DNA of 64,000 nt from Thermoflexus hugenholtzii (lineage in GTDB: Bacteria; Chloroflexota; Anaerolineae; Thermoflexales; Thermoflexaceae): assembly GCF_018771565.1 (NCBI RefSeq), contig NZ_CP076326.1, positions 2,733,785 through 2,797,784 on the forward strand, in the 5' to 3' direction. Position 1 is the first letter of the stretch. Every line of letters starts with the position of its first letter. Below are positions 1,928 through 20,400 of the stretch, one piece after another. The position numbers and the translations under genes were made by a program. Below the pieces are notes generated by a model. That model worked only from the letters and a program-made list of their open reading frames with translations, made no database searches and was not told the DNA's origin.

Positions 1928-2230
1928 ATGGGACGGATCTACCAGGTGGATTACGATCAGGCCTTCGCGCTCTGCGCGGAGATGGAGCAGGTCATGGGCG
2001 AGATGGAGGGCGAGACAACGACCATGGGCCGGTCCATCGAGCCGCTGGAACCCCGCTGGGTGCCGCATGGGGCGGCAGCGCGGGCTTACGGCGAAACCCT
2101 GATCCAGCACCTGCGGAAGTGCGTTCAAGAAAACCGCGCGGCGATCGCCGCGCTGCGCCAGGCCCTGAACAACCTGAAAGCCCTGGAGGAGGAGCAGGCG
2201 CGGCGCATGCGATCCCCGCGCGCATATTGA
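1928..2230 (+). CDS. WXG100-like (ESAT-6-like) small helical protein, non-canonical central W-x3-G
   Basis: 100 aa with helix-turn-helix style composition. Central 'EPRWVPHGAAARAY' occupies the position of the WXG turn. It is followed 18 nt later by a canonical WXG100 partner. Confidence 0.55.
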   Translation: MGRIYQVDYDQAFALCAEMEQVMGEMEGETTTMGRSIEPLEPRWVPHGAAARAYGETLIQHLRKCVQENRAAIAALRQALNNLKALEEEQARRMRSPRAY

Positions 2231-2248
2231 GGGCACAAAGGAGGAGCC

Positions 2249-2575
2249 ATGGCGTACGACGAGCCGGCGTCGCGAAAGTGGACGCATTGGCCGAAAGCGA
2301 TCCAGGCCTACCGACGGGGGCTGGAGGAGGAAACCCCTCAGCGTATCGGGATGGAGGTGAGGAGGGCGCTCCTGGAGGAGCTGCCGGGCCTCTGGGCGGG
2401 AGAGGCCGCTCGGGGTTACCTGGAGGAGGCCCAGCGCCGGCTGGAGATCTTCCAGCGCTGGCTGGTGGAAGGCTTGCAGCTCTCCAGGGCGATTGCGGCC
2501 GGGGAAGAACGGATCGCCCAGGCCGTCGCCGAGGTGGAGCAGATGCTGCGATCGCTGCCGGATCCAACGTTGTGA
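2249..2575 (+). CDS. WXG100 family (type VII secretion target-like) protein
   Basis: 108 aa with the central motif 'LPGLWAGEAARGYLEEAQ' (W-A-G followed by an aromatic or helical segment). The size and pairing are typical of Esx-type heterodimers. Confidence 0.65.
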   Translation: MAYDEPASRKWTHWPKAIQAYRRGLEEETPQRIGMEVRRALLEELPGLWAGEAARGYLEEAQRRLEIFQRWLVEGLQLSRAIAAGEERIAQAVAEVEQMLRSLPDPTL

Positions 2576-2585
2576 GGGAGAAGCG

Positions 2586-3704
2586 ATGGGCGCGCAGGAT
2601 CCTCGCGGGCTGCAGGTGGAGCCGGAGGCGGTTCGGGAGATCGCCCGGGCGTTGCGGCGGGGGGCCCGGGAATGGGAGACCCTGGCTCAGCGAGCCCAGG
2701 GGCACGGAAACGCGCTGGGGGAGATCGCCCGGGCGGTGCCCGGGGAACAGTTCCGCGCCTTCTGGGTCCGGCAGTATCCCCGCTGGCAACGGGGCGCGGA
2801 GTATCTGATGCGCATGGCCGAGGTCCTGGAGCGGGCCATGGACCGGCTGGAGGAGGCCTTCCGGATGGCAGCCCGGATGGTGCAGGAGGCCCCTACGGCG
2901 GAGCGCGGGGCGTTGCCCTTCGTGCCCCTCGCCCTGAGCCCGGAGGGGTATCCCCGCGCCGTGGACGCCACCGGACGTCCCCTTCAAAGCCAGTTCGAGG
3001 CCCGCGTCTCCACGGCCCAGCTGCTCCAGCTGGGGGTTTCGGAGGCTTCCCTCCGGTCCTTGCTGGGGCTCCGGGAAGGACAACCGTTGCCGGAGTCCAT
3101 TCCGTGGAGCGCGGCCTGCGGTCCGGTGGGGCTGAGCATGGCCGCCAGCGCGGTGCTGGGCCGCTCCGTCCCGGTGGAGGCGGCGATTGCCAGCACGCTG
3201 CGCACCGCAGATGCTTCGCTTCAGCAATCGATTCGCGAGAACATCCAAGCCCGTCCGGGCAAGGGGAGCCTCGGCTTCTACACCGGGACCCATGACTTGA
3301 TCCGAGCGGCGGGCGAACTGGGGTTAAAGGGAGAGCAAGCTTGGGTGCCGAATGGAGAACAGGATTCGGAGGGGCTGTGGCAGAGCTTGCAGGAGCGCCT
3401 CGGCCGCGGGGAGGCCCTGATGGCCCTGGTGCGCATTCAAGAGAAACGCGGCCTGCAGGTTGGGGATGGTCTTTTGACTCCCCATCAGGCTTCAGACTCC
3501 GTCTCCCACTGGGTGACGGTGCAGAAGCTGGAGGAGGGGCCCGAGGGGCGCTATGTGGTGATCGGCAACCCCTATTTCAACCGCTCCGAGCGCTACCGCT
3601 GGGAGGATTTCCTCGAAGCCGTTGATGATCAGGCCCGGAAAGAGCGATGGTGGATGCTGGCGTTTTCGAAGGGAGAAGGCCAGTCCGGAGGGGGGATGCC
3701 ATGA
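2586..3704 (+). CDS. Two-domain protein: N-terminal WXG/LXG-like helical domain plus C-terminal C39-like (papain-fold) cysteine peptidase domain; candidate T7SS effector
   Basis: Start ATG 2586 follows GGGAGAAG. The N-terminus 'LQVEPEAVREIARALRRGAREWETLAQRA...' forms a helical hairpin. The C-terminus has 'WSAACGPVGLSMAASAVLG' (catalytic Cys context of Peptidase_C39-like proteins) and 'SHWVTVQKL...GRYVVIGNPY' (His and Asn/Asp context). Confidence 0.55.
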   Translation: MGAQDPRGLQVEPEAVREIARALRRGAREWETLAQRAQGHGNALGEIARAVPGEQFRAFWVRQYPRWQRGAEYLMRMAEVLERAMDRLEEAFRMAARMVQEAPTAERGALPFVPLALSPEGYPRAVDATGRPLQSQFEARVSTAQLLQLGVSEASLRSLLGLREGQPLPESIPWSAACGPVGLSMAASAVLGRSVPVEAAIASTLRTADASLQQSIRENIQARPGKGSLGFYTGTHDLIRAAGELGLKGEQAWVPNGEQDSEGLWQSLQERLGRGEALMALVRIQEKRGLQVGDGLLTPHQASDSVSHWVTVQKLEEGPEGRYVVIGNPYFNRSERYRWEDFLEAVDDQARKERWWMLAFSKGEGQSGGGMP

Positions 3705-4855
3705 GCGGGCGGTGGAAGGCGGTGGGACTGGTGGTGGGGTTGCTGCTGGGGGCGTGCGGCGCCCCGGCGGAGCCATCCCCCGGGCCGCGTCCGGGGGCCA
3801 CGGCTCCGGCGAAGGAGGCGGCGGCCTCTCCCTCGCCAGCTCCGACGCGGACCCGTCTCCCCACGCTGACTCCGGCGCCTCTGGCGTTCCGTCCCCAGCC
3901 GCTTCCGGAGGGTTTTCGGACGGGGGATCACTGGCTGGCGGTGCGGGTGGTGCGGGAGTTTGCGAAGGAGCGGACGGCGTATACGGCGGACACGTATGCG
4001 ATCTGGTTCACGGACGGGCAGCGGTGGCTGGGGCCGGTGCCGGAGGTGGGTCTTTACATCACGCGGCTGGAGAGGGCGTTTTGGCGGCGGGCGGGGGATG
4101 GGTGGGAGTTGTGCGCGCGGGTGGCGGTGCAGCCCACGTTGGGGGCGCAGGAGGCGCCGATGGTGTTCTGCGCCCCGGCGCCTTCGGGGGTGGGTCCGAA
4201 GGAGGCTTCTTCGGCCTCTCCGGAGGCGTCGCCGTGCCCGGACGGCCGCTCCCTCTGCGTGAAGCGATCGGACGGTTCCGTCCGATCGCTTCCGTTGCCC
4301 GCGGAGCTGTTCCGGCCGGATCCCTCGCAGAAGATAGAGGAGATCTCCCCACCGGAAGTTGGGACGGAAGGGGTTCGGATGGAGATCCGATACAGGACCA
4401 CGGAGAGAGGAGGGATCGTTGAGACAAGGGTATGGAAACCGGTCTGTGGGGCTCGAGGTCGCTGGGTGGTTTTGGACTTCGCGGTGTATCGGCATCCGTG
4501 GGGCGGCGCCGCGGGCGGTGGGCTCGAACATAGCGAGCTCTACATCGCCGATCTGTCCGCTGAAACGGTGCGTCCGCTGGGCGCCATCGAAGCGCGCGGG
4601 CAGCTCGTAGACGCTTTCCGAGCGGAGGGTCGGATCCCCTTCGTCCGAGGGGACGAACGATTCTCCATGCCGAATCACCTCCTCCCCTATGTGGAGGGAG
4701 GCTGCTCCTCCGATGGATCGTTCCTGCTGTTTGGCACAGAGGCGGATGGGTCCGGAATGCTCGGTTTCCCGCTGTCCTGGGTGGCGCGGCTGGAGGATCG
4801 CGTGATCTATCCCTTGCCGGGGGACCAGGCCCGGTGGGTGGAGAAGAGCCCATGA
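3701..4855 (+). CDS. Lipoprotein, unknown function; translationally coupled to the upstream gene
   Basis: ATG 3701 overlaps the upstream stop (ATGA). The signal and lipobox read 'MSGRWKAVGLVVGLLLGAC'. A Pro/Ala/Thr-rich linker is followed by a globular region with no motif I recognise. Confidence 0.7.
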   Translation: MSGRWKAVGLVVGLLLGACGAPAEPSPGPRPGATAPAKEAAASPSPAPTRTRLPTLTPAPLAFRPQPLPEGFRTGDHWLAVRVVREFAKERTAYTADTYAIWFTDGQRWLGPVPEVGLYITRLERAFWRRAGDGWELCARVAVQPTLGAQEAPMVFCAPAPSGVGPKEASSASPEASPCPDGRSLCVKRSDGSVRSLPLPAELFRPDPSQKIEEISPPEVGTEGVRMEIRYRTTERGGIVETRVWKPVCGARGRWVVLDFAVYRHPWGGAAGGGLEHSELYIADLSAETVRPLGAIEARGQLVDAFRAEGRIPFVRGDERFSMPNHLLPYVEGGCSSDGSFLLFGTEADGSGMLGFPLSWVARLEDRVIYPLPGDQARWVEKSP

Positions 4856-4971
4856 GGGCGGAACGAGGAAAGCCGGCACGCGATGAGCAGGAGGGCGGAG
4901 ACGGTGAGGAGGGGTGCGATCGGCCTGGCCGGGTGCGATGAAACCGGACCGGACGAGGAGGCAAGCGGAGG

Positions 4972-6288
4972 ATGTTCCCGGAGATCCGGGCGGAGACCAT
5001 CGAGTCGCTTCTCCCTACGGAGGCCGCGCTGCCTCTGGAAGCGCTTCGGGCGGCCCTTTCCCGGAACACCGGAGGACGTCCGGCAGGGGTGGCGGATGCC
5101 CTGCGGGCGGCCCAGGAGGTGTTGGGGCCGGCGGCGGCTCCGGCGACGCTGGCCCGGGCTGCCCTGGCCGTTCTGGACTGGGAGGAGCTGTTTCCCATCC
5201 TGAGCGACCCCGCGGTGGAGGATTTCGCCCTTCACCACCGGCGCTATCTGTGGGTCTTCCGGGGTGGGCGCTGGGCGCGCTGGGGGGAGGTGCAGGATCC
5301 GGATCGCCTGATGGGAGGGATCCGCCGGCTGTGTGAGCGCTACGGGATCCGCACGCCGGGGGATGTGAAGCCGGCCGCCGAGGGATCTTTTTCCATCGAT
5401 CTCCCGGATCCCATCGGTTTCCTGACCGTGCGGATCTCCTGGTCGGCCCCGCCGCTGGTCCCCTCGGATTGTTTGACGGTGCGCCTGGCCCGTCCCGGCC
5501 GAGCGCCCGGGCTATCCGATCTGGTGGCGGGAGGGGTGCTCACCCCGGAGGCGGCTCGGTATCTGCTGGGGGTGCTCCGGCGGCGGGGAACCCTGATCAT
5601 CGCCGGGCCGACCGGTTGCGGCAAGACCACCCTGGCCCGGGCGCTGTTGCGGGAGGTGGGCCGGGAGTTCCGCCTGGTGATCATCGAGGACTCCTACGAG
5701 CTGATGGTGTTCTGGGACGGCCGCCCGGATAGCGACCCGGGGAACGTGGTGCACAAGCTCACCCGACAGAAGCTGCCGGGCGAGGAGATCGTCCCCTTCT
5801 CGGCCTTCGATCTGATCGTGATGGCCCTGCGGGAGCGCCCCGACGGCATCGTGGTGGGAGAGGCCCGGGGTCCAGAAGCCTTCGAGATCCTGCGGGCGGC
5901 CAACACCGGCCACGGCCCCCAGGTCACCACGATGCACACCGATAGCGTCCAGCGGGTGTGGTCGCGTTACCTCCAGATGGCCCAGGCCCACCCGGAGGCC
6001 CGGGATCTTCCGGTCCGAACCATCGCCATGATGTTTGCCGAGGCGGTGGCGGCGGTGGTGGTGATGGGTTACCGGGAGGGGCCGGACGGAGGGCAGCGCT
6101 TCGTGGAGGCCATCGCGGAGGTCCTGCCCTTTGTGGAGGGCGATTCCGATCAGCCGGCCCTGCGGACGGTCTTTCAGCGGACGGGGGAGGGGTTGCGACC
6201 GGCTTCCCGGCCGGCTCGGCCGCGCTTTACGGCGGAGGAGCTGGGGCTGACGGATCTGCCCTGGGGGGCCGGCGCAATGGTCTGGTGA
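4972..6288 (+). CDS. cpaF: Tad pilus secretion ATPase (CpaF/TadA, type II/IV secretion ATPase family)
   Basis: Walker A 'IIAGPTGCGKTTLARALL', Walker B-like 'RLVIIEDSYEL', 'IVVGEARGPEAFEILRAANTGH' and the His box 'TTMHTDS'. Confidence 0.85.
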   Translation: MFPEIRAETIESLLPTEAALPLEALRAALSRNTGGRPAGVADALRAAQEVLGPAAAPATLARAALAVLDWEELFPILSDPAVEDFALHHRRYLWVFRGGRWARWGEVQDPDRLMGGIRRLCERYGIRTPGDVKPAAEGSFSIDLPDPIGFLTVRISWSAPPLVPSDCLTVRLARPGRAPGLSDLVAGGVLTPEAARYLLGVLRRRGTLIIAGPTGCGKTTLARALLREVGREFRLVIIEDSYELMVFWDGRPDSDPGNVVHKLTRQKLPGEEIVPFSAFDLIVMALRERPDGIVVGEARGPEAFEILRAANTGHGPQVTTMHTDSVQRVWSRYLQMAQAHPEARDLPVRTIAMMFAEAVAAVVVMGYREGPDGGQRFVEAIAEVLPFVEGDSDQPALRTVFQRTGEGLRPASRPARPRFTAEELGLTDLPWGAGAMVW

Positions 6289-6305
6289 GAGATCGGGGGG
6301 ATCCG

Positions 6306-7268
6306 ATGGATCTGCGGGACGCGGTGGCATTGCTGGCGGGTGCCATTGTGGGGGCGGGGGCGCTGGCCGCCCTGGCCCGCCCGACCGAGGAGGCTCTGAT
6401 CCGGTCCGGCTGGCGGGAACTGGTGCGCCGCCCCTGGCTGGAGGGCATGCTGCGGGCCGCAGGGATCGATCTGCCGCCCACGTTGTTTTTGCAGTTTGCG
6501 GTCCTCTGGGCGGCGGCGGGTGGGCTGATCGGCCTGATGGCGGGGCTGGGTCCCGTGGCCGCCGGGATGCTGGCCTTCTTCGGGGCCAGTTTCTATTTCG
6601 TCCGTGCCCAGGAGCAGGCCGCGACCCGCCGCTTGCTCCTGGCGGGGGAGCTCCTCGTCTTCTTGCGGATGCTGGCAGCCGGGCTGCGGGCCGGCGCGCC
6701 GCGCTCGGAGGCCATCGCGCGGGCCAAGCAAGTATGCGGACCGGTGGCCCGTCGGGCCCTTACGGACCTGGAGGAGCGGCTGGCTCGGGCCGGCGATGCG
6801 CCGGAGGCGCGAACCCGGGCGGTTCAGGAGTGGGCAGCGGCCCTCGCCCATCCGGTGGCCACCTCGGCCGCCCAGGTGTTGCAGGTGTTCATGAGCGGCG
6901 GCGCGGGGGTCTCGGAGATCGTTCAGGTGATCGCGGAGGAGATGGACCGGGTGCGCCGCATCCTGGAGGTCGCCCGGGCCCGGGGGCGCGGGATGCAACG
7001 CCGGATCTATCTCATCATCGTGATGTCCGCGGCGGGCCTGCTCTTGTTGATCGCCTCCGATCCGATGTTCCGCGATCTCCTCCTCGGGGATCCGATCAGC
7101 CCCGTCCTGATCGTGGGCGGATGGTGGGGGGCTTTGATGGTTTCCCAGTGGATAATGGATCGATATTTTTCGATGGAAGAGACGGTGGGCATCGCCCGGG
7201 GAGGCGCCGGCCTGATCCCCACGGACCGCTATGGGAACCCCATCCTGCCCGGCGGGGAAGCCCGATGA
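6306..7268 (+). CDS. tadB: Tad pilus inner-membrane platform protein (TadB-like, T2SSF family)
   Basis: Polytopic membrane protein placed directly after cpaF. Start ATG 6306. N- and C-terminal hydrophobic blocks flank a cytoplasmic helical domain. Confidence 0.7.
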   Translation: MDLRDAVALLAGAIVGAGALAALARPTEEALIRSGWRELVRRPWLEGMLRAAGIDLPPTLFLQFAVLWAAAGGLIGLMAGLGPVAAGMLAFFGASFYFVRAQEQAATRRLLLAGELLVFLRMLAAGLRAGAPRSEAIARAKQVCGPVARRALTDLEERLARAGDAPEARTRAVQEWAAALAHPVATSAAQVLQVFMSGGAGVSEIVQVIAEEMDRVRRILEVARARGRGMQRRIYLIIVMSAAGLLLLIASDPMFRDLLLGDPISPVLIVGGWWGALMVSQWIMDRYFSMEETVGIARGGAGLIPTDRYGNPILPGGEAR

Positions 7269-8167
7269 GCCTGGCGGATCTGGCGGCGCTCCTTGCCGGC
7301 GGGCTGGTCTTGGGAGGGCTGTGGGCGTCCCTCCTGCGGTCGGCGGATCCGATTCGGGCCCGGCCGGAGAGCCCGGATCCGCTGGATCGGGGGACTGCGC
7401 TGCCGGCCTGGCTGACGCCGCTTTATCCCCTCCTGTGGCCGCTGCTGCCTGTCTGGGAGGGCATCGCGCTTCGCCGGGGAGCTCCCTTGGCCGAGCGCAT
7501 CGCCCGCTCTGGATATACGCCTTACGCCACGGTCTCGGCGGTGTGGGCCGCGCGGCTGTGGGGGATGGCCCTGGGCCTTCTGGCGATGATCGGAGGAAGT
7601 CTGCTCACCGGCCTGCTCCTGGGCACCCTGATCCCGGGGATCCTGGGAGGGCTGGCGGCAGGGCTTTACGGGGTGCTGTCTCCGGATCGACGGATCGCGG
7701 CGGCCATCGCCGCCCGGAAGCGGCGGTTTCGGTCGAACATGCTCCTGGTGCTGGCGGCGGCCCGGGGCTTCCTGCGCGGAGGGAGAGCCTGGGATGATGC
7801 CCTCTCCCGGGCAGCGGTGGGAGACGGAGTGTTCGCCAACTGGGCCCGCTTCCTGGTCGCCCGTTACACGGCGCGCGGGGAGGCCGGCCTTCAGGAAGCC
7901 CTCTTCCATGCCCCGGATCCGCGGGATCCTTACCTGATCCGCTTCATGGATGGGGTGCGCGCAGCCATCTCCGGAGGAGCCGGTTTTGAGGTCATCCTCT
8001 CCTCCCTCATCCAGGATCTGGGCTCCGAGATGGAGCAGGAGGTCTCCGAGCGGGTGACGGCCGTCGAGCCCTACGTAATGGCCGCGGGGATCCTGGCCAT
8101 TATGGGCTACATGATCGTCCTGCTCTATCACGTCTTCGCCGGCGGCCAGGACTTGCTCGGCTTCTAA
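7265..8167 (+). CDS. tadC: Tad pilus inner-membrane platform protein (TadC-like, T2SSF family)
   Basis: ATG 7265 overlaps the tadB stop (ATGA). It has the same architecture as TadB, and its position is canonical. Confidence 0.7.
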   Translation: MSLADLAALLAGGLVLGGLWASLLRSADPIRARPESPDPLDRGTALPAWLTPLYPLLWPLLPVWEGIALRRGAPLAERIARSGYTPYATVSAVWAARLWGMALGLLAMIGGSLLTGLLLGTLIPGILGGLAAGLYGVLSPDRRIAAAIAARKRRFRSNMLLVLAAARGFLRGGRAWDDALSRAAVGDGVFANWARFLVARYTARGEAGLQEALFHAPDPRDPYLIRFMDGVRAAISGGAGFEVILSSLIQDLGSEMEQEVSERVTAVEPYVMAAGILAIMGYMIVLLYHVFAGGQDLLGF

Positions 8168-8193
8168 ATCTTCGCGGTGAGCGGAGGTGATCC

Positions 8194-8385
8194 ATGCAGA
8201 CGTTGTGGGCGTTTCTGACGGAGGAGGAGGGACAGTCCCTGGTGGAGTTCGCCCTGCTGTTCCTCTTCATCGCCGTGGTGGCCGCCCTGGCCCTGCCGGG
8301 CGTCCGCCAGCGCATCCTCAACGCCTTCCGGATCGGCGGCCAGAAGATGGACGAGGCTACGGGAGCGGCGTCAGGAGGAGATTGA
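8194..8385 (+). CDS. flp: Flp/Fap family pilin
   Basis: 63 aa. 'LTEEEG|QSLVEFALLFLFIAVVAALAL' matches the Flp prepilin G/XXXXE[YF] processing motif followed by a hydrophobic helix. Confidence 0.85.
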   Translation: MQTLWAFLTEEEGQSLVEFALLFLFIAVVAALALPGVRQRILNAFRIGGQKMDEATGAASGGD

Positions 8386-8750
8386 TGGGGAGGGCGCGCC
8401 GGCGGCGGGATCAGCGGGGCCAGGGCCTGGTCTCCTTCGCCCTGGCTATGGTTCCTTTCTTCCTGTTGTTGCTTTACATGCTTTACGCGGGCGCCTACGC
8501 CCTGCGCTGGAGCGTCCGTTCCCGGCTGGCGGCGGAGGCCGCCTTCCGGACCTCGGCCTATCCGGGCGTGACCTCGGCGGAGATCGTCTCTGCCATCGAT
8601 CCGGCCCGCCGGGCCCTGGAGGCCCGCGTGGACGAGGTCCAGGATACCGGCGGGCGCTTCTACGGCGTCCCGATCCGCTGGCGGGTGTCCCTGCAGCTGC
8701 TCTTCCGCAAGTGGCGGTTCTGGGACGGGCCGCCGCAGGACTGGTGGTGA
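8385..8750 (+). CDS. TadE-like pseudopilin
   Basis: The start overlaps the flp stop by 1 nt. The N-terminus 'RRRRDQRGQGLVSFALAMVPFFLLLLYMLY' is the TadE-type charged segment followed by a hydrophobic one. Confidence 0.65.
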   Translation: MGRARRRRDQRGQGLVSFALAMVPFFLLLLYMLYAGAYALRWSVRSRLAAEAAFRTSAYPGVTSAEIVSAIDPARRALEARVDEVQDTGGRFYGVPIRWRVSLQLLFRKWRFWDGPPQDWW

Positions 8751-8763
8751 CGGGGGAGGACCT

Positions 8764-10601: not shown

Positions 10602-10604
10602 AAG

Positions 10605-12435: not shown

Positions 12436-13989
12436 ATGGAGCGACGGGACGAGATGTTCAGAGATGTCACGCGGAGCAAGAGAATCCTCCTGTTATTCGT
12501 CCTCATTGGGGGGATCACCCGATTGCTCCCGGTGGTTCCTTCCTCCGTCCGGGCCCAGTCGGGCTGGGTCGACGTGTTCTTCGACGACTTCAACGGGAAC
12601 ACCGGGTGGAGCATCTACCAGTTCGGAGGCGGGGATGAGATCGCCTTTTCATCAGACGGCGGGGCAACGGTGATCCGGGCCGACAACGCCTCCGCGGACG
12701 GCCCGGGGCGGGACGATTACTCCGGCTTCGCTGCCCGCTCCGTCTCCATCCCCGCCGCCTACTCCGACTATGCCGTCGAGGTCCGCCTGCGCTTCCCCGA
12801 GCGCACGCCATTCGGAATGCTGCTCTCCGTGGGGACCGGCACGCCGGCCGGCTGCTCCGGCGGCGCTTACTGGTCCTTCGTGGAGGACATCCTGCGGATC
12901 CACGCCAACAGCAGCGGCGCCCAGGTGGCGGTCTTCGAGGGGGACGTTTACGCTCCGCCGTCGCCGGAGGCCTTCTTCACGGTCCGGCTGGAGGTCTACG
13001 GCTCCTCCGGGATATGGATGCTCCTGATGGATGGAACGCCGCGGGCCTCGGGGGCGATCCCGCCGGGGGCGGGGCGGCCCGGGGGGATCCACATCGGCAA
13101 CTACCGTTATGGGTGTGCCTTCTGGGGGAACTGGACCAGCCTGCACGTGGACTACGTGCGGATCCAGGGCTATGCGGCGCCCACCCCGACCGCGACATGG
13201 ACGCCCACGCCGACGCCGACCTTCACGCCGTCGCCCACGCCCACGGATACGCCTACTCCTACGCCTACAAACACGCCGACTCCCACGCCCACCAACACGC
13301 CCACGCCGACGCCTACAACGACGAACACGCCTACTCCCACGCCTACGGATACGCCGACCCCCACGCCGACGAACACGCCGACGCCTGCGGCAACGCCGAC
13401 CTCCACCTTCGCGCCGCCTCCGCCTCCGCCGCCGCCCACGGAGACGCCAACGTCCACGCCGACGGCCACGAGGACGTCCGCTCCGACGCGGACCCGCACG
13501 CCGACGCCGACCCCGGTGCCCACGGAGACGCCCCTGCCTTCGCCCACGCCGACGGCGACGGGGACGCCGACGCCGACGCCGTCCCCTCCGCCCGCGCCGG
13601 CGCCGACGCCTTCGGCGATCTGGGGGATCGTCTTCCTGGACCGGGATGGGGACGGCCGGCTGGACCCCGACGAGCCCGGGATCCCGGGGGCTGTGGTGCA
13701 GGTGGAGGAGCAGATCCGGATCACCGGGCCCGACGGGCGCTTCCTGCTGCCGCCCGGCTCAAAGGCAGCGCTTTTGCGCCTTCCGGTTGCGGGGCGGCTG
13801 ACGGTGGCGGACGGGGTGGTGTTCGGGGTGCAGCCCCTGCGGCGGCCCCGGTGGCTGCTGGGGCTGGGGGTGGGGATGCTGCTGCTGGCGCTTTCCTGGG
13901 CCTTCAATCCCTGGGCGCGGGAGCTGCGGCGGCTTTCGGAAGACCTGAAGGGGCTGGCGAAGTTCTTTCTAAAGGCATTCCACGAATGA
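12436..13989 (+). CDS. Cell-surface protein: concanavalin/LamG-like domain, long Pro-Thr linker, SdrD-B/CarboxypepD_reg-like domain, C-terminal TM anchor
   Basis: N-terminal signal or TM segment. '[11 protein letters not shown]...[11 protein letters not shown]' resembles lectin/glucanase-fold domains. About 145 aa of (T/S)P repeats follow. '[29 protein letters not shown]' is the SdrD-B-like part, and '[18 protein letters not shown]' is the anchor. Confidence 0.6.
13180..13613 (+). repeat. Imperfect tandem ACNCCN (Thr-Pro) coding repeat
   Basis: Reiterated units such as ACGCCGACGCCTACAAACACGCCGACTCCCACGCCC encode TPTPTPT[ND]TPTPTPT... The antisense frame gives the spurious 'GVGVGV' ORF at 13170..14351. 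Confidence 0.9.
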
Positions 13990-14023
13990 TTCGTGTGGCA
14001 CCTTCGATTCGGGGAGGCGCGCG

Positions 14024-14563
14024 ATGACCGAGGGGGATCTGGCTCTGGGGATGCTGCTAATTTTCGGCTTTGCCCTGCTGGGGTTGGCCACCACGTGGGG
14101 CTGGGCCCGGAACGCCCGGGAGACGCGGCGGATCCGGGAGGCGCTGGAGGCCTGGGCGCTGCAGGAGCTGGCCCGCCGGCGGGAGCAGGAGGCCCGGGAG
14201 ATCCGGCCGCCGGAGGACCTGCGGGGGTATCTGGCGGATCTGCTGGCCCGGGCCGGGATGGAGGGGGTGCGGGTGCAGGAGGTGACGCCGCTTCCGGGAG
14301 GTCCGGGCTTCCGGGTGATTGCGGACGGGAAGGCCTGGATCCTTTCGCCACATCCGCCGGGGCGGGGGGAGGGGGTCGTCCTGGATGCGCTCACCACGGG
14401 GGACCGATGGGCGGCGGAGCGGCTGCGGCGGGCCCGGATGGCGGCCGAGCCCGGCCTGGCCGTCCCGCCCACGGAGCGCTGGTGGCTGGCGCCGGAGATC
14501 CGGACCTTCGCGCCCCGGCGCAACGGACGGCGGTTTTCCATCCCCTTCACGCTGCCGCGGTAG
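14024..14563 (+). CDS. Small membrane protein of unknown function, immediately upstream of the EssC-like ATPase
   Basis: N-terminal TM segment 'LALGMLLIFGFALLGLATTWGW', then a charged coiled segment and a ~100 aa C-terminal domain. Confidence 0.5.
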   Translation: MTEGDLALGMLLIFGFALLGLATTWGWARNARETRRIREALEAWALQELARRREQEAREIRPPEDLRGYLADLLARAGMEGVRVQEVTPLPGGPGFRVIADGKAWILSPHPPGRGEGVVLDALTTGDRWAAERLRRARMAAEPGLAVPPTERWWLAPEIRTFAPRRNGRRFSIPFTLPR

Positions 14564-14651
14564 ACCTCCCGGAGATGAGGGAAGCGGGGGAGCGAGGGAG
14601 CCAGGAGCGTTCGCCTCCGCACCTTTCCAGGATCTTGAAGGAGAAGGCTTT

Positions 14652-17600
14652 ATGGGCTGGGTGGAGCGGGATGGGAAAGAGATGCTGGACCCGGAGGCCC
14701 CGGTGCAGCGGATCTGGCCGGGGTTGCGGCGGTTGCCGGCGACCCCGATGGGCCTCCCGGAGCCTCCGGAGCTCCCTTCGGTGCCTCGGGCCCCCGAGCG
14801 GCCGCCTTTCTACCTCCACGCCCCCTGGGCGCTGATGGCGCTGGTCTACGGGCTGGTCGGCCCCCTGACCGGTATGCGATCCAGCTGGGTCTCGCTGCTC
14901 TTCCTCCCTCTGGCCCTGGGCTCCTCCTTCCTGGCCGCCGAGATCCAGCACCGGTGGAGTCTCTCCCGATATCGCCGGGAGCTTCAGGAGACCCTGGCCC
15001 GCTCAGAGCGGCGGCTTCGTTGTTTCCTCGAAGGAGTGGAGGCATGGCGTCAGGCAATGGAGGCCTGGGAGCGCACGCTCTTCCCTCCGTGGGAAGATCT
15101 GGAGGCCCGGCTGCGAAGCGGATCCGATCTCTGGTTCCGCCGGCCGGAGGATCCCGATTTCCTGCACGTCCGGCTGGGGCTTACCACCGAACCGCTCCGT
15201 CCCCCTCAAGGGCGCTGGTCCTCGCTGGACCCTGAGGAGGTGCCGCCGCCGTTGCGAGGGGCCGCTCACGCCGTCCGGTCGATTGCAGAGATGCGCCGGG
15301 AGGTCCCCCTCGGGCTGGACCTCCGCCGCCCGGCAGTGCTTCGGGTTTTCCCGGGACAGGAGGGAATCCTCCGGCGGATCCTCCTGGAGGTGGCGCTTGC
15401 CCATTCCCCCAGCGAGGTGGGGCTCTTCGCCGCCCTCGCCGATCCGGAATGGTCCTTCCTGCGCTGGCTGCCCCACACCGGGGAGGAACGGGAGGGATGG
15501 GCGGATGGACCCGCCGCGGTCCGGGAGCGGATCTTCGAAGAGTTCTATCGCCGACGGGGACGGGGAGAAGGGATCCTCCCTCGCATTCTGCTGTTGCTGG
15601 ACGCGGACGCGCTGGGGGATCCCCGGCTGGGGGAGCTGCTCCGGGAGGGCCCTGTCCGGGGCATCCACCCGGTTTTGATCCTTTCGCCGGGGGAGCCGGT
15701 GCCGGGGGAGGTGCGAACCGAAGCTGTCCTGTTCCCCGGGGGTGGGATCTGGATCTCCCATCGGGATGGGGGGCCGCAGGAGGGACGGGATCCCGGGCCT
15801 TTTCTGACCGCGGGGCACGCGGAGGCCCTTGCCCGGCGGTTGGCCTCGCTGCGTCCGATGGGCATGCGTCCCTCGCCCCGTCCGGTGCCTGCCCCCGCCC
15901 TGTGGGGGATCCAAGCGCGGGAGACGGCGCCGGAGGATATCCAGCGCCTCCGGGCCCTTCGCGGAAAGGCCCCCTCCCTGGCGGTCCCGCTCGGAACTGA
16001 GGAAAGCGGGGAGCCCTTTGTGCTGGATCTGCACGACCGCGCCCACGGCCCCCATGCGATGGTGATCGGGGCCACCGGGTCCGGCAAAAGCGAGGCCCTG
16101 CGCACCCTGGCCCTGGCGCTGGCCCTCCACTTCCCCCCGGAGCGGGTGCAGCTGCTGTTCATCGACTTCAAAGGGGGCGGGGCCTTCGCGCCCCTGGAGG
16201 GGCTGCCCCACTGCGTGGGGCTGCTCTCCAACCTGGACGCCCGGGAGGCCGCCCGGGCCCTGCGGACCCTGGAGGGGGAGCTGGACCGGCGGCAGCGGGT
16301 CCTGGCCGCGCGCGGGGCGGATCATGCCGACCAGATTGGGCTGCCGCATCTGGTGGTGATGGCCGACGAGTTCGCGGAGATGCTGGAGGCGATCCCGGAC
16401 GGGATGGCCCGCATGATCCGCCTGGCCCGGCTGGGCCGCAGCCTCGGGATGCATCTGGTGCTGGCCACCCAGCGGCTGGGGAGCGCGGTGCCGGCGGATC
16501 TGCGGGCGAACCTTCGGGTGCGGATCGCCCTGCGCTGCGAGACCCCGGACGAATCCGCCGCGGTGATCGGGCGGCCGGACGCGGCGTATCTGGTCGGCTC
16601 CGGGTGGGCCTTCGTCCAGGTCGGCCAGAACGAGGTGTTCCGGCGGATCCGGGTGGCCTATGTTTCGGGGCGGAGTCTCGGGGCCCGGGAGATCCTCTGG
16701 ATGGACCCCGTGGATCCCGCCCGGCGGCTGCGGCGGGAGGTGATCGGCGGCGAGGCGCGGCGGGATCTGGACGTCCTGGTGGAGGCGCTCGCCCGGATGG
16801 ACCCTCCGGCCCCGCGGCGGACGCCCCCGCCGCTGCCGGCCGATCCGGGCTTCCCGGAGGGGGAGGGGGAGCATGGGATCGGGATCGGGGTGGCGGACTA
16901 CCCGGAGATCGGCGAGATCCGCTGGATCTTCCTCACCCCCTCGGCGCCGGACTGGCGGCTGGTGGGGCAGGCGGGGACGGGGAAGACGGCGGCCCTGATG
17001 GCGGCGGCCGCCGCGGCCGCCCGGGCGGGCCGGCGGGTGGCGGTGGTGGATGGGGACGGCGGGTGGAAGGAGTGCCCATGGGTCCTTCGCGTTCTCCCCG
17101 AGGACCGGGAAGGGCTCCGCCGGTTGCTTCGAACGCTCTCCACCGATCCTTCCCCTACCGTTCTCGTTCTGGATGGCGTGGAGCGGATCCCGGAAGCGGC
17201 GATGGGGGAGCTGGAGCCGGGGCTGGAGGGCCTGACGGGACGGCCGGAGCTGTGGATCTGGACGGCCTCCCGCCGCGAGCTCCCCTTGCGTCCCTTGAGA
17301 GGCCGTCCGGCAGTTCGGGTGTTCCTCGCGCTGGATCCTCCGGAGTGGGAGGCCCTCATGGGGCGGCGCCCGATCCCGGAAGGTCCCTTTCAGGGCTGGC
17401 TGGCCGACGGAGAGGGGGGACGGGAGATCCGATTGCGACGGGCCATGGGGCCGCCGCCTCCTCCCGCTCCGCCGCTGGCCCGCTCCTGGCTCGGGCGGTG
17501 GTCGGAGCTCCCGCTCCCCACCCGCACGGAAGAGGGGTGGTGGTGGCCCCTGGGCTGGCGCGATCTCGACCTGGAGCCCATAAGCGTCCTGCTCTCCCCC

Positions 17601-18068
17601 CGTCGCCCGGCGTTGCGGATGGCCCCCGAGCTGGTGGCGGCCCTGGATCCCTTGCGGCGTTCCTTGTCCCGCGTGGCGGGCGCCGGGATCGCCCTTCGGA
17701 CCTGGGATCCGGAGGGGGACCTGGAGGAGATCCCGGCGTTGAAAAGCCTCCCGGATCCCCAGAGTTTTCTGGAGGAGCTGGGGCGTCTGGAAGCGGAGGG
17801 GATCCCCTGGCTGGCGGTCCTCCCGGACACCGACACCTTCCGGATGCGCCTGGGTTATACCGGGGAGATCCCGCCTCCCCTTCGCCGGCCCCGCTGGGGC
17901 GCTTACCTCCTGGTCGGGCGAGAGCGCCTGGAGCTGCGGGCCTGGACGTTGAGCCGCTCCCCGGAGGAACGTCCCTCCCAACCGTCCATCGCAGCGGATC
18001 ATCCCGGGCTGGCCTGGCTGAGCGCCCCCGGGGAGGGCGAATGGATATTGCTCCCATTGGGCGAATAG
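14652..18068 (+). CDS. FtsK/SpoIIIE-family ATPase, EssC/EccC-like: two N-terminal TM helices and two P-loop domains
   Basis: ATG 14652 follows GAAGGAGAAGG. TM segments are 'APWALMALVYGLVGPLTGM' and 'WVSLLFLPLALGSSFLAAEI'. Domain 1 has 'AMVIGATGSGKSEALRTLALAL', 'LLFIDFKGGGAF', 'HLVVMADEFAEM' and 'HLVLATQR'. Domain 2 has 'LVGQAGTGKTAALMAAAAAA' and 'TVLVLDGVERI', which looks degenerate. Confidence 0.8.
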   Translation: MGWVERDGKEMLDPEAPVQRIWPGLRRLPATPMGLPEPPELPSVPRAPERPPFYLHAPWALMALVYGLVGPLTGMRSSWVSLLFLPLALGSSFLAAEIQHRWSLSRYRRELQETLARSERRLRCFLEGVEAWRQAMEAWERTLFPPWEDLEARLRSGSDLWFRRPEDPDFLHVRLGLTTEPLRPPQGRWSSLDPEEVPPPLRGAAHAVRSIAEMRREVPLGLDLRRPAVLRVFPGQEGILRRILLEVALAHSPSEVGLFAALADPEWSFLRWLPHTGEEREGWADGPAAVRERIFEEFYRRRGRGEGILPRILLLLDADALGDPRLGELLREGPVRGIHPVLILSPGEPVPGEVRTEAVLFPGGGIWISHRDGGPQEGRDPGPFLTAGHAEALARRLASLRPMGMRPSPRPVPAPALWGIQARETAPEDIQRLRALRGKAPSLAVPLGTEESGEPFVLDLHDRAHGPHAMVIGATGSGKSEALRTLALALALHFPPERVQLLFIDFKGGGAFAPLEGLPHCVGLLSNLDAREAARALRTLEGELDRRQRVLAARGADHADQIGLPHLVVMADEFAEMLEAIPDGMARMIRLARLGRSLGMHLVLATQRLGSAVPADLRANLRVRIALRCETPDESAAVIGRPDAAYLVGSGWAFVQVGQNEVFRRIRVAYVSGRSLGAREILWMDPVDPARRLRREVIGGEARRDLDVLVEALARMDPPAPRRTPPPLPADPGFPEGEGEHGIGIGVADYPEIGEIRWIFLTPSAPDWRLVGQAGTGKTAALMAAAAAAARAGRRVAVVDGDGGWKECPWVLRVLPEDREGLRRLLRTLSTDPSPTVLVLDGVERIPEAAMGELEPGLEGLTGRPELWIWTASRRELPLRPLRGRPAVRVFLALDPPEWEALMGRRPIPEGPFQGWLADGEGGREIRLRRAMGPPPPPAPPLARSWLGRWSELPLPTRTEEGWWWPLGWRDLDLEPISVLLSPRRPALRMAPELVAALDPLRRSLSRVAGAGIALRTWDPEGDLEEIPALKSLPDPQSFLEELGRLEAEGIPWLAVLPDTDTFRMRLGYTGEIPPPLRRPRWGAYLLVGRERLELRAWTLSRSPEERPSQPSIAADHPGLAWLSAPGEGEWILLPLGE

Positions 18069-18118
18069 CAAGCGTTTGGAGTCTCCCCGCCACGGAATTC
18101 GAGACTGCGGAGGAAACG

Positions 18119-19054
18119 ATGCGAAGGATCCGACAGATGCTTCCCCTGTTAATCGGAGTCGGACTGGCCCTGGTCGTGGCCGTGATCGCCCGCACGTTCG
18201 CGACCATCGGGGTCCCCCGGACGGTGTCGGTGGCGGTCGCTGCGATCCCGCTGCACCCAGGCCGGGTGATCCAGGAAGGGGATTTGCGGACGGTCACGGC
18301 CTATGAGAGCCCCGCCCTCTCCGGGATGATCCGCGAAGAGGAGATGCGGGGGCTGGCAGGGGGGACGGTGGTGATGTTCGTCCCGGCGGGAGCCATGGTC
18401 CCACGGACCGCCATCGTCCCGCCCCGCCAGATCACCGCGCCGGGCCGCCTCTCGGCCCTTCTTCAGGAAGGCGAGCGGCTCATGGTCCTGTCGGTAGGCG
18501 GTCGGGTCAGCGGGCCGCCTGTGAGCGCCCTGCGTCCCGGGGACTGTATGGACCTTGTCGCTTTCTTCCGAGAGACAGGGGCGTCGACCAGGCCGGCCGC
18601 GTCCCTGAGCCCGGAGGAAGCCTCATCGCCCGCCTCCTCCCTTGCGGCGACCCAACCGATCACCCCACCGACCCGCCCGCTGGCGAAGTGGATCGCCCGG
18701 GTGGTGGTGCGCTCGGTGCTGGGGATCAGCGCGCCGTCGACGAGGTCGGAGGCCGGGGCAGTCGGCGGAGGCGGAGTGAGCGCTTCCGCATCCTCCGGCG
18801 GGTCCCCTCAGGTGCTGGTCGCCATCCCGGAGGCTGCGGCGGAGGGGATCGCTTACGTCCTGGGGTCCGCGGAGCAGGTGCATCTGCTGTTGGCCCCGCC
18901 GTGCGCCCGGGCGGAGATTCTACCTTCCTCCGCCTTCTCCGAGGGGGACCTGCAGGAGTGGGTCCGATCCGGGCGGGCGGAGGCGGGGCCGCCGGCCTTC
19001 TTCCTCCCGATCTCCTCCACCCTGCCGACGAAGCCGAGCGGAGGTGCGCCATGA
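18119..19054 (+). CDS. cpaB: Flp pilus assembly protein CpaB/RcpC-like
   Basis: The basic N-terminus and TM segment read 'MRRIRQMLPLLIGVGLALVVAVIA'. The SAF-like segment reads 'VAAIPLHPGRVIQEGDLRTV'. An alternative in-frame ATG at 18041 cannot be excluded. Confidence 0.65.
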   Translation: MRRIRQMLPLLIGVGLALVVAVIARTFATIGVPRTVSVAVAAIPLHPGRVIQEGDLRTVTAYESPALSGMIREEEMRGLAGGTVVMFVPAGAMVPRTAIVPPRQITAPGRLSALLQEGERLMVLSVGGRVSGPPVSALRPGDCMDLVAFFRETGASTRPAASLSPEEASSPASSLAATQPITPPTRPLAKWIARVVVRSVLGISAPSTRSEAGAVGGGGVSASASSGGSPQVLVAIPEAAAEGIAYVLGSAEQVHLLLAPPCARAEILPSSAFSEGDLQEWVRSGRAEAGPPAFFLPISSTLPTKPSGGAP

Positions 19055-20400
19055 AGGTCGTGGTGCTGGGGACCCTCACCGGGATCGCCGGTTCCATCGC
19101 CAACCGGCTTGCCGCCCTGGGCCACGAGGCGATCCCGCTGCCCGGCCAGCAGCCTCCGGAGATCCTCATCGGGTTCCATCCCGAGCTGCTGGTGGTGGTG
19201 GCCTCGGAGACCGGCATGGAGATCGCCGTGGTGGAGCGGGTGCTCAAAGACACCGGGGCTCCCGTTGTGGCGGTGGCCGCGGCGGGGGATCCCTGGCTCC
19301 TCTGGGCCGAGGCGCGGAAGTTCCCCGTCCTCTCCCCGGAGCGGGCTGCGGAGGAGCTGGCAGGCCGCCTGAGCCAGCTGGTGGAGCAGGCCCGGGCGGG
19401 GGATCGGGAGCGCTACCTGCAGCAGCTCTACCGGGGCCCGGTGATCGTGGGGACGGCCCCCCGGGTGATCGGCTTCGGGGGCCCGAAAGGGGGGACCGGG
19501 AAATCCTCCCTTGCCGCCAACGCCGCGGCCCTGCTGGCCGCCCTGGGCGTCCCCATCTGGGTGTTCGACGCGGAATCCGACACCCGGGGCAACATGGTGG
19601 ATTTCTTCCGTCTGGGGGAGGAGAGCACCGTTTATTCCGTGGTGGACCTCGCCGCGGCCGGGCCGCCCCCGGCGGCGTCCCCGGGGATCTTCCAGCCGGG
19701 CGCTCACGTGCCGACTTTCTGGACCTCCGTGCCTTCCCCGAAGGGTGTGCGCTGGGACCTTCGCCTGACGGCGGGGGTCCTGGTGGTGGACCAGATCCTG
19801 GGGGAGCGCTCCGGCCCGCTGATGGCCCGGGCGGCGGACTGGCTGGAGTTCGGGGTGCGACGGGCGGCGAGCGAGGGCTACACGGTGATCCTGGACTCCG
19901 GCAACAACTTGTTGAGCCCCCTCTCCCTTCGCGCCCTCAACATCGCGGATGTGCTGTTCATCGTCCTGGAGCCGGAGGACACCGGGTTGATCGCTGGGGC
20001 CTCCTGGCTGGCGGCGGTGTATCGGATGGCCGGGCCTGCCGCCTTCGAGCGGATCCGCGTGGTGTTCAACAAGGTGCGTGCGGAGAGCGGGGATCTCCTG
20101 GTGAGCCGCCTGCGAGATCATGTGGAGGCCATCCTTCGTCAGCGGCTGCCCCGGGCGCTTCCCGTTCGCGTCCTGCCGCTACTGGATGTGGACGTCGCCC
20201 GCGCCCAGGCCAACCTGAGGCTGGGGGTGGAGTTCCTGGCGGCGCTCCAGGCCCTCACCCAGGGCCGATACGCGGCGGAGACGGCTTCGTTCGCCGAGGC
20301 CCTGCGAGGCATGCTGGCGGAGTTCTTTCCGGCCATCGCCCAGGCGGCCTCCTCCCGCCCCGAGCCCCGCGGCGGCCTGCGGCTCCCCTGGCGCCGGTGA
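19051..20400 (+). CDS. cpaE: TadZ/CpaE-like ParA/MinD-family ATPase with an N-terminal receiver-like domain
   Basis: ATGA overlap with cpaB. Deviant Walker A 'VIGFGGPKGGTGKSSLAANAAALLA'. The N-terminal ~120 aa is receiver-like ('MKVVVLGTLTGIAG...'). Confidence 0.8.
   Translation: MKVVVLGTLTGIAGSIANRLAALGHEAIPLPGQQPPEILIGFHPELLVVVASETGMEIAVVERVLKDTGAPVVAVAAAGDPWLLWAEARKFPVLSPERAAEELAGRLSQLVEQARAGDRERYLQQLYRGPVIVGTAPRVIGFGGPKGGTGKSSLAANAAALLAALGVPIWVFDAESDTRGNMVDFFRLGEESTVYSVVDLAAAGPPPAASPGIFQPGAHVPTFWTSVPSPKGVRWDLRLTAGVLVVDQILGERSGPLMARAADWLEFGVRRAASEGYTVILDSGNNLLSPLSLRALNIADVLFIVLEPEDTGLIAGASWLAAVYRMAGPAAFERIRVVFNKVRAESGDLLVSRLRDHVEAILRQRLPRALPVRVLPLLDVDVARAQANLRLGVEFLAALQALTQGRYAAETASFAEALRGMLAEFFPAIAQAASSRPEPRGGLRLPWRR

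Follow-up and report, generated by a model that had tools for sequence, protein, structure and literature searches.

Why should the genes of a pilus and those of a protein secretion system be shuffled together in a single gene train? The question is raised by a 64,000-nucleotide (nt) stretch of chromosome, hereafter the window, from a member of the Chloroflexota, a Thermoflexus strain near T. hugenholtzii (contig NZ_CP076326.1, positions 2,733,785 to 2,797,784). Between positions 1928 and 20400 the window carries, as judged from its sequence, a monoderm-type tight adherence (Tad)/Flp pilus machine and a minimal, lineage-specific type VII secretion system (T7SS), the genes of the two being interleaved. 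The pairing as such is of a known kind. In the Bacillota, the subtypes T7SSg and T7SSh always adjoin Tad genes, and the published adjacencies, in Paenibacillus and Acetivibrio, came from too few genera to decide between function and coincidence, so that coincidence was left open (Garrett et al. 2024, PMC11217815). The original prediction for this DNA, which knew of no EssC-type ATPase within a Tad locus, is outdated in this respect (PMC11217815). What is new here is the phylum, true interleaving that persists through rearrangement, a compact EssC clade without YukD or known partners, and an effector type that we propose as a candidate from sequence, namely a papain-fold peptidase that is fused to a WXG-type hairpin and has a lipoprotein as partner. 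Neither pili nor a T7SS are mentioned in the Thermoflexus genome paper (PMC8129789).

The train comprises 19 coding sequences on the + strand, numbered g1 to g19 here, with no further open reading frame (ORF) seen among them; the earlier count had been 20. On recount, the predicted gaps and overlaps were reproduced, with start/stop overlaps at 3701, 7265, 8385, 9159 and 19051, a 3-nt gap at 10605 between g12 and g13, and widest spacers of 116 nt (4856-4971), 88 nt (14564-14651) and 50 nt (18069-18118). A GGAGG-type ribosome-binding site precedes most of the genes. No terminator-like site was found between genes inside the train; all matches were intragenic and no commoner than in shuffled sequences. 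Both ends are bounded, the 5′ end by a divergent sigma factor gene and the 3′ end by the convergent corA gene (20415-21437, - strand), and a strong terminator (1085-1119) lies upstream of the sigma gene, after an RpoD-like gene (2-1060). In the related locus L025 (loci compared are numbered with the prefix L), a 6.1-kb insertion relative to the window (8722-14840 of L025) separates TadZ from corA. It begins with two ORFs, one for a substrate-binding protein of the Bmp/PnrA type and one for an ABC ATPase; this confirms the end of the cluster at TadZ. The window has a G+C content of ∼69%, and genes sampled elsewhere in it are ordinary chromosomal genes.

At the centre of the T7SS assignment is g17 (14652-18068, +), a compact EssC/EccC-type ATPase of 1138 amino acids (aa) with an FtsK_SpoIIIE match of 8.7e-37. 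Its layout consists of two transmembrane (TM) segments, a DUF domain, the domains D1 and D2, and a degenerate D3, with no FHA domains. Moderately hydrophobic segments at residues ∼54-75 and 78-98 align with the EssC/EccC transmembrane region, which makes the two TM segments called in the original prediction plausible. Among its PDB matches, the best were Thermomonospora curvata EccC (4nh0, 3.1e-62) and Bacillus subtilis YukB (9qks, 8.2e-55), and residues 35-290 matched the N-terminal TM/DUF region of EccC3. While EccC structures matched three regions of g17, the DUF domain and the N-terminus among them, FtsK structures matched one ATPase core only (7e-23). Alignment of the Thermoflexus-type profile with 18 EssC/EccC sequences by hhalign gave a probability of 100 and an E value of 1e-105 over 1052 columns, with residues 30-1092 keeping the order of that family, starting in the TM region, across the DUF domain, D1 and D2, and reaching into D3. 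The Walker A motifs of D1 and D2 (at residues 473 and 772) are invariant in the clade, and that of D3 is lost. Public annotation calls the protein an 'FtsK/SpoIIIE domain-containing protein' or 'DNA segregation ATPase FtsK/SpoIIIE'; its named database matches are EssC or EccCa. Taken together, these comparisons indicate from sequence that g17 is a genuine member of the EssC/EccC family. It groups with EssC/EccC and not with FtsK or TraB, as had been predicted, and identity as an FtsK, TraB or coupling protein is ruled out by the PDB matches and the profile-profile collinearity. Like the EccC proteins of T7SSa (T. curvata 4nh0 and mycobacterial ESX), g17 has two TM segments, a DUF domain, three P-loop-type domains and no FHA. 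Unlike them, it is short (1138 aa versus ∼1300-1400 aa), its D3 lacks a Walker A motif, and none of the T7SSa components EccB, EccD, EccE and MycP was detected at the Thermoflexus locus. The protein shares a 90% cluster with Thermoflexus hugenholtzii proteins, and all of its relatives at 51-93% identity come from Thermoflexus metagenome-assembled genomes (MAGs) or hot-spring metagenome contigs.

Pilus genes lie on both sides of g17. The original prediction had listed a full set of core Tad components, of which CpaF, TadB, TadC, CpaB and TadZ were recovered by profile, whereas the small parts (Flp, TadE-like proteins and the A24 peptidase) were recovered as motifs and sub-threshold profile matches. 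The CpaF/TadA-type pilus ATPase is g5 (438 aa, 4972-6288, +; Pfam T2SSE, PF00437, 1.5e-25). It is adjoined by two polytopic platform proteins, the TadB-like g6 (320 aa, 6306-7268, +), with several hydrophobic segments and a T2SSF (PF00482) match of 2.2e-5 that scores 24.9 bits, 0.3 bits under the cut-off of 25.2, and the TadC-like g7 (300 aa, 7265-8167, +; PF00482, 1.3e-3), which is 34% identical to the TadC-like gene adjoining EssC in L008. The CpaB/RcpC-like g18 (311 aa, 18119-19054, +) matches TIGR03177 pilus_cpaB at 5.6e-12, under the equivalog cut-off of 71 bits, along with a weak SAF/ChapFlgA match. The last gene, g19 (449 aa, 19051-20400, +), encodes a TadZ/CpaE-like ParA/MinD-type ATPase whose Pfam CbiA match (1.1e-7) covers residues 144-369, behind an N-terminal domain of ∼140 aa. 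As for the small components, g8 (63 aa, 8194-8385, +) has the motif G13-QSLVE-F followed by a hydrophobic helix, as in Flp-type prepilins; the Pfam search gave it no match, PF04964 included, and the Flp label stands at motif level. Three putative TadE/TadF-like pseudopilins follow. For g9 (8385-8750, +) and g10 (8764-9162, +) the sole match is TadE (PF07811) at the sub-threshold values of 0.11 and 1, and they carry the class-III-like motifs GQGLVSF and GEALTEL; g11 (9159-9548, +) has an N-terminal hydrophobic helix only. The putative TadV/CpaA-type prepilin peptidase g14 (148 aa, 11977-12423, +) is of the A24 type without a methyltransferase domain. Its G-A-G-D-A-K sequence (GxGDxK) lies at residue 75, with Asp-...-R-I-P further upstream, and its sole Pfam match is Peptidase_A24 (PF01478) at a sub-threshold 0.23. 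Its homologue in L008 (blastp 4.6e-5) matches PF01478 at 1.1e-11.

Among the train proteins there was no Secretin or TPR Pfam match that would point to RcpA, TadD or RcpB. The lack of a secretin fits a monoderm-type Tad locus and does not speak against Tad membership. Monoderm Tad/Flp loci, such as those of Bifidobacterium, Micrococcus and Clostridia, have the same CpaF/TadA, TadB and TadC set as found here and share the TadV-type A24 peptidase, the CpaB-like protein and TadZ; their Flp and TadE/F-like pseudopilins correspond to the putative ones of the train, and they too lack the RcpA secretin and TadD. Where the Thermoflexus cluster departs from them is in the EssC gene, WXG-type genes and effector-like cassettes inside it and in the sigma factor of the extracytoplasmic function (ECF)-like kind next to it.

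The head of the train contains the remaining T7SS-type genes. It had been predicted to encode WXG100-type proteins, and this holds in the form of weak signals for g1 and the N-terminus of g3, both below cut-offs though WXG100 was the sole or top match each time, and not for g2, which has no profile match. The WXG100-like small helical protein g1 (100 aa, 1928-2230, +) matched TIGR03930 WXG100_ESAT6 at 1.5e-4 and PF06013 at 0.006, aligned end to end, with both scores below the curated cut-offs; the top PDB match of its family profile was an EsxH-type chain (3q4h, E 0.15). Its neighbour g2 (108 aa, 2249-2575, +) is a small helical W-x-G protein and a candidate EsxB/Lap-like partner. The motif L-W-A/S-G-E-A-A is invariant among relatives of g2, and in an AlphaFold2 model W49-A50-G51 lies at the turn between helices 30-48 and 52-102. 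No match was found for g2 in Pfam/profile searches and no Esx match in the PDB profile search, and assignment to the WXG100 fold by Foldseek was not significant, with EsxA 46th at an E value of 4. In L015 (9184-9483) and L017 (9343-9642), a third small gene of 99 aa stands between g1 and g2; it is collinear with g1 at ∼20% identity and is not present in the window strain.

The most telling product of this region, g3 (372 aa, 2586-3704, +), is a candidate T7SS effector in which a cysteine peptidase of papain fold appears to be fused to an N-terminal WXG100-like hairpin. Residues 9-92 gave a sub-threshold PF06013 match (0.027), the top PDB match of the g3 profile was EsxA (3zbh, E 0.017), and there was no match to the LXG domain PF04740 in the N-terminus. 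In the AlphaFold2 model, with a predicted local distance difference test (pLDDT) score of 74.6, the papain-fold domain at residues 125-362 is well predicted. By Foldseek, the N-terminus of the model resembles EsxA (TM-score 0.72-0.82), and the C-terminus is closest to the PCAT1 C39 domain and staphopain (E 2.5e-3). Residues C178, H308 and N328 are invariant among relatives. Public annotation labels both g2 and g3 'hypothetical protein'. The start of g4 (384 aa, 3701-4855, +) overlaps the g3 stop. This orphan lipoprotein has an L-G-A-C lipobox behind its signal peptide and is a candidate immunity or partner protein. An exhaustive phmmer search of 1.84 billion representatives returned 11 relatives of g4, none with a Pfam family, which leaves g4 all but confined to its lineage. 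On this result we rejected two identities for g4, a DUF5050 propeller like TsgL and a member of any known immunity family. A WXG hairpin fused to a papain-fold peptidase and followed by a lipoprotein would constitute a new candidate effector class.

The order of these genes, from small WXG-like genes to an enzyme with a helical domain to a lipoprotein partner, has a counterpart in the LXG modules of T7SSb in Staphylococcus, Streptococcus and Bacillus, where Lap genes are followed by the LXG toxin and its protective protein; the Lap, LXG-toxin, immunity layout is described for T7SSb and newer subtypes (PMC11217815). As at the Thermoflexus loci, the T7SSb cassettes are variable and duplicated. 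The two differ in that g3 has a ∼100-aa WXG100-like hairpin in place of the LXG N-terminus and a predicted papain-fold peptidase as its toxin domain, and in that g4 is a lipoprotein of no known family. Moreover, the T7SSb components EssA, EssB, EsaA and EsaB were not detected at the Thermoflexus locus.

If the two gene sets belong together, their mixture might be expected to recur among relatives. In the five loci from Thermoflexus genomes (L001-L005), EssC is followed by CpaB and TadZ, and the four of these five with upstream flank have g15-g16 before EssC, plus the A24 peptidase where the contig reaches. L017 has the gene order of the window, except that the 99-aa gene separates g1 from g2, and its sigma gene is co-directional. 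In Candidatus T. tengchongensis, the cluster has come apart around the sigma gene into two units that diverge from each other, each of them a mixture of T7SS and Tad genes. Unit A contains g1, the 99-aa gene, g2, g3, g4, CpaF, TadB, TadC, Flp and TadE-like genes; Unit B contains sigma, g12, g13, g3-like and g4-like genes, A24, g15, g16, EssC, CpaB and TadZ. This split implies that a single transcript is not a conserved requirement. A third arrangement is found in a lineage of 74% GC whose EssC is 53% identical. Its locus starts with Flp/TadE, EssC and TadC and continues with a 105-aa gene of marginal similarity to g1, a 360-aa helical protein, two Flp genes, TadE, g12, g13 and A24. A metagenome scan yielded 73 loci. 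Where the flank of a first-tier locus is long enough, Tad genes are present in most cases; the short contigs L027, L037 and L039, the last of which looks chimeric, give no context information. T7SS and Tad genes thus stay mixed in most informative arrangements across Thermoflexus relatives. The neighbourhood comparison called for in the original prediction therefore came out with the Tad linkage conserved, surviving rearrangement in related genomes.

The genes of the cluster do not diverge at the same pace. We compared the window with a sister clade whose EssC is ∼59% identical. Amino acid identity was highest for Flp (g8, 91%) and the TadE-like proteins (81-84%), followed by CpaF (g5, 72%), TadZ (g19, 62%), EssC (g17, 56-60%), g1 (56%) and g2 (53%). 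It fell to 46% for the positional orthologue of g3, 31-35% for g3 paralogues and 32% for g4. Both g3 and g4 hence diverge faster than EssC, TadZ and CpaF, g4 being among the fastest of the cluster, and the g3/g4 cassette is present one to three times per locus, in two slots. This identity gradient, together with the variation in copy number, is as expected of effector-immunity modules and not of a housekeeping assembly enzyme.

Tad adjacency is not a general trait of EssC loci, as this was rejected by the wider survey. At seven of the eight second-tier EssC loci, one of them from a Chloroflexota MAG, there are no Tad genes within 10 kb of EssC, nor were any found at ∼50 distant EssC/FtsK-like metagenome loci. 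The eighth second-tier locus, L010/L011, is Tad-linked (EssC P0015). On L010 it spans 1238-18814 of a 324-kb Joint Genome Institute metagenome contig of 65% GC. Its genes are CpaB, TadZ, CpaF, TadB, TadC, Flp-like, TadE-like, EspG, WXG100 and EssC, after which come two enzymes of the WXG/LXG-like kind, both with a lipoprotein of their own behind them, and lastly YukD. A T7SSh-like set (EspG, WXG100, EssC and YukD) here stands directly after a complete Tad set. One enzyme has a WXG-like N-terminus and a Peptidase_C39_2 match of 1e-6, and the other has an SLT/lysozyme-like sequence motif seen by eye. Beyond the Bacillota genera already published, L010 adds a second lineage in which Tad and T7SS are linked. 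In a neighbour-joining tree, P0015 falls in a clade with Streptococcus EssC, while the Thermoflexus-type EssC proteins form their own long-branched clade, each with 100% bootstrap support. The placement of P0015 and g17 in separate clades means that Tad linkage occurs in at least two separate EssC lineages.

The closest published relatives in organization are T7SSg and T7SSh, in which an FHA-less EssC-type ATPase and WXG100 proteins (WXG100-like ones in Thermoflexus) also stand beside a full Tad set, together with candidate substrates that have helical N-terminal targeting domains and with small WXG100-related partner genes, as here. Those systems belong to the Bacillota and the present locus to the Chloroflexota; there, T7SS and Tad genes form adjacent blocks, whereas in Thermoflexus they are interleaved. 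Of the markers of these subtypes, namely the DUF5050 beta-propeller TsgL of T7SSg, the EspG-like TshG and TshM of T7SSh and the YukD-like TsxB of both, none was detected in the window. In addition, g17 is ∼200 aa shorter than the EssC proteins of T7SSg/T7SSh, lies in its own long-branched clade and is not sister to the T7SSh-like, Tad-linked P0015, which served as a proxy for TsgC/TshC in the tree. A precedent for a Tad-like apparatus with a role beyond adhesion is Myxococcus Kil, which acts in contact-dependent prey killing (Seef et al. 2021, cited in PMC11217815). Kil is not known to have an EssC or WXG100 component and works in a diderm, and its likeness to the Thermoflexus locus is a functional analogy only.

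Several genes of the train belong to neither machine by homology. The 'adhesin block' that the original prediction had seen in g12, g13 and g15 is unsupported. Instead, g12 (9585-10601, +; N-terminal TM segment) and g13 (10605-11960, +; signal peptide, Cys-rich) form a strain-variable accessory cassette without Pfam or PDB profile matches. A 2.3-kb segment containing them (9556-11873) is absent from L021 (98.8% nt identity) and L026 (∼90%), which show a clean g11-g14 junction in its place, and in other species one or two g3-like cassettes, not always accompanied by g4-like genes, occupy the g12-g13 slot. In relatives, g12-g13 travels with g3-like cassettes. The 517-aa g15 (12436-13989, +) is predicted to be a secreted surface protein, with a signal peptide, a Pro/Thr repeat linker, a C-terminal hydrophobic segment as anchor and a weak SdrD_B match (0.05). 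Its Pro/Thr-coding tandem repeat array (13200-13610; periods 6, 24 and 48) is 67-79% identical between strains otherwise 90-98% identical, indicating a linker of variable length. In Thermoflexus loci retaining flank, g15 lies upstream of EssC, before g16 where g16 was detected. The single-pass membrane protein g16 (179 aa, 14024-14563, +), which has no Pfam family or PDB profile match, stands directly upstream of EssC; it keeps an upstream position in Thermoflexus loci and most clade metagenome contigs retaining flank, and was not detected in L031 and L035. In Pfam and in profile searches of the PDB, which includes ESX and T7SSb complexes, nothing matched g12, g13 or g16, and their identity with known T7SS membrane components such as EccB or EssA was rejected.

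Next to the train lies a candidate dedicated regulator, a small ECF-like sigma factor gene (1128-1691, -; Pfam Sigma70_r2, 8.8e-11) that is divergent from g1 and likely starts at ATG 1691, with GGAGGAG before the start. It is 52-58% identical to the sigma genes of L017, where the gene adjoins g1 and is co-directional, and L015, where it heads the EssC unit. The sigma gene is hence a conserved neighbour of the cluster in three different orientations. Roughly 25 nt upstream of the g1 start is an AT-rich element, CTGTCTATCATCTTAATGAG (1885-1904, +), a candidate promoter or operator of the train by its sequence and position. The 11-mer CTGTCTATCAT is invariant upstream of g1 in three species, the rest of the spacer having diverged, and occurs as a single copy in the window with 0 expected by chance. 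The 12-mer GCTGTCTATCAT was found at three sites only in the fetched loci, in L015, L017 and L004. L004 overlaps L015 on one contig, so that these sites represent two other species; those of L015 and L017 lie upstream of g1. No further copies of the CTGTCTATCAT-type element that could mark internal promoters were found in the window train or the fetched loci, and a scan of 1000-20900 for sigma-70-type promoters gave no consensus match. A tandem AAAAATGGG repeat (1827-1846) is common to the window and L015. Both AT-rich elements, the AAAAATGGG repeat and CTGTCTATCAT, lie within the 236-nt sigma-g1 spacer of a genome of 69% GC.

How, then, might the two systems be related? A linkage that is conserved and survives rearrangement favors regulatory or functional coupling over a one-off juxtaposition, as far as gene order can tell. 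The reading with the best support is that of a monoderm Tad cluster with a minimal, lineage-specific T7SS and its cargo cassettes built into it. Probably the pilus and the T7SS share their regulation and act in concert at the cell surface, a view in whose favor we also count the conserved upstream element and the adjoining sigma gene. From the observed parts and their linkage we infer a scheme to which we give about an even chance. In this scheme, Tad and the T7SS would be two separate assemblies that are expressed together and used jointly at the cell surface. EssC would export g1/g2 and the g3 peptidase, the WXG-type helical domain serving as targeting module, and g4 would shield the producer's own envelope as the immunity partner of g3. 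The Tad pilus may provide the attachment or contact through which the exported effector acts, and in hot-spring mats this could serve to antagonize cells on contact or to condition the surface. The lipoprotein nature of g4 indicates an extracytoplasmic target for g3, and the pairing of WXG-like enzymes with lipoproteins in L010, independent of g3/g4, supports the effector-like reading.

Several results weigh against this scheme. The WXG100 scores of g1 and g3 are below curated thresholds, and g2 has no profile or structural match. The predicted papain-like fold of g3 does not disclose its substrate, and homology of g3 to the WXG and Peptidase_C39_2 protein of L010 could not be demonstrated (hhalign probability 2%), the architecture alone being common. 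Among the 19 train proteins there was no PF08817 match for a YukD/EsaB-like protein, although a very divergent beta-grasp could escape, and no Pfam match for EspG, EssA/EssB/EsaA or EccB/EccD/EccE/MycP. A YukD-like ubiquitin-like protein (TsxB/EsaB) has been described as almost universal in T7SS (PMC11217815), and a YukD-domain protein is present at seven of the eight second-tier EssC loci, the exception being the Chloroflexota MAG locus L012. All eight have at least one Pfam WXG100 or ESAT6-like match, several of them weak or faint. Two loci also depart from the common pattern. Downstream of EssC in L038 come small genes, the gene of a 358-aa protein and g12-g13 in place of CpaB/TadZ, and the 10 kb on that side yielded no Tad gene. 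L094 (104-5835), the most basal Thermoflexus-type lineage with an EssC 51% identical, has no CpaB/TadZ after EssC. What follows EssC there is 16S rRNA, 5S rRNA and a tRNA, then rpoD and rpoB, and on the upstream side the contig breaks off. Finally, all first-tier loci fall within a single clade of genus level, and common descent therefore accounts for some of the conservation.

These last points would fit two independent systems that share a neighbourhood and, at most, their regulation, the interleaving having arisen in one ancestral Thermoflexus rearrangement. We consider this a tentative possibility, to which the single clade, the departures in L094 and L038, the many EssC loci elsewhere without Tad genes and the coincidence explicitly left open by Garrett et al. 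(2024, PMC11217815) all lend weight. It is harder to reconcile with a mixture kept through at least three gene orders, including a two-unit split with both kinds of genes in each unit, and down to ∼50% EssC identity, or with the reappearance of Tad adjacency in a phylogenetically separate EssC clade and in two Bacillota subtypes (PMC11217815). The T7SS might also be a helper in pilus assembly, with EssC exporting g3 and its paralogues for local opening or remodelling of the wall or S-layer to let the Flp pilus through a thick monoderm envelope. This idea draws on analogy; flagella, type III and type IV secretion systems have dedicated lytic enzymes. Every species does have the peptidase gene inside its pilus cluster, there is neither a secretin gene nor one for any other component that would cross the envelope, and the WXG/LXG-like proteins of L010 have hydrolase-type C-termini (Peptidase_C39_2 at 1e-6; lysozyme/SLT-like by eye). 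Variable copy number and the faster divergence of g3/g4 than of machine parts, however, are typical of effector-immunity pairs, each hydrolase is followed by its own lipoprotein, and the structural neighbours of g3 are C39/staphopain-type proteases, not NlpC/P60 or CHAP. We regard such a helper role as unlikely.

Closer integration of the two machines can be imagined as well. EssC might dock on TadB/TadC/TadZ/CpaB and pass WXG-tagged cargo through or along the pilus machine. In its favor, EssC is flanked by A24/g15/g16 and CpaB/TadZ, or by TadE and TadC, and YukD, EssA/B, EsaA and EccB/D/E were not detected here, in contrast to the YukD found at seven of eight second-tier loci. This support is contextual, and the T7SS partners not detected here might be g12, g13, g15 and g16. 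An EssC hexamer presumably requires a membrane scaffold of its own, and we know of no precedent for an EssC docked onto a Tad platform; we judge such an apparatus very improbable. A pilus-coupled T7SS, in which an EssC without canonical partners would form a hybrid with Tad and deliver WXG-tagged effectors such as g3 through or beside the Flp pilus to contacted cells, is decidedly unlikely. There is next to no chance that g17 is a DNA translocase (TraB-, TcpA- or FtsK-like) and the locus a device for pilus-assisted DNA transfer or uptake. The public annotation as 'DNA segregation ATPase FtsK/SpoIIIE' and weak TrwB_AAD_bind and HerA_C Pfam matches would suit such a role, but g17 is collinear with EssC/EccC from the TM region into D3, its residues 35-290 resemble the EccC3 N-terminus, its best named matches are EssC/EccCa, FtsK matches one core at 7e-23 versus 3e-62 for EccC, and WXG-type genes are present. 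Co-expressed but separate machines, with g3 exported and g4 protective, thus remain our preferred reading.

To the question left open by Garrett et al. (2024), the Thermoflexus locus adds an independent case in another phylum, with interleaved genes and several rearranged versions that mostly keep the mixture, and the analysis adds another Tad-linked lineage of EssC that stands apart in the tree. All of this taken together, coincidence becomes less likely. The pattern points to a recurrent functional partnership between adhesion pili and T7SS effector export in monoderm-type bacteria. With EssC and WXG-type proteins only, and neither YukD nor known membrane partners detected, the locus also bears on what the core of a T7SS is. 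T. hugenholtzii JAD2 is in culture, which makes transcriptomics and secretomics feasible.

Elsewhere in the window, an IS605 OrfB/TnpB-like gene (36913-38409, -; OrfB_IS605 2.8e-23, Cas12f1-like TNB 2.4e-21, HTH_OrfB_IS605) lies in a stretch of slightly lower G+C (0.64-0.66). The window's only clearly low-GC stretch (0.59 overall) contains an alpha/beta-hydrolase gene (60304-61239, -), near which lies a tRNA gene (59173-59248). Its G+C at third codon positions is 0.55, compared with ∼0.85 elsewhere in the window, and this low composition suggests a recent foreign origin. Lastly, a co-directional NurA-HerA nuclease/helicase pair (26965-30766) bears no relation to the Tad/T7SS train.

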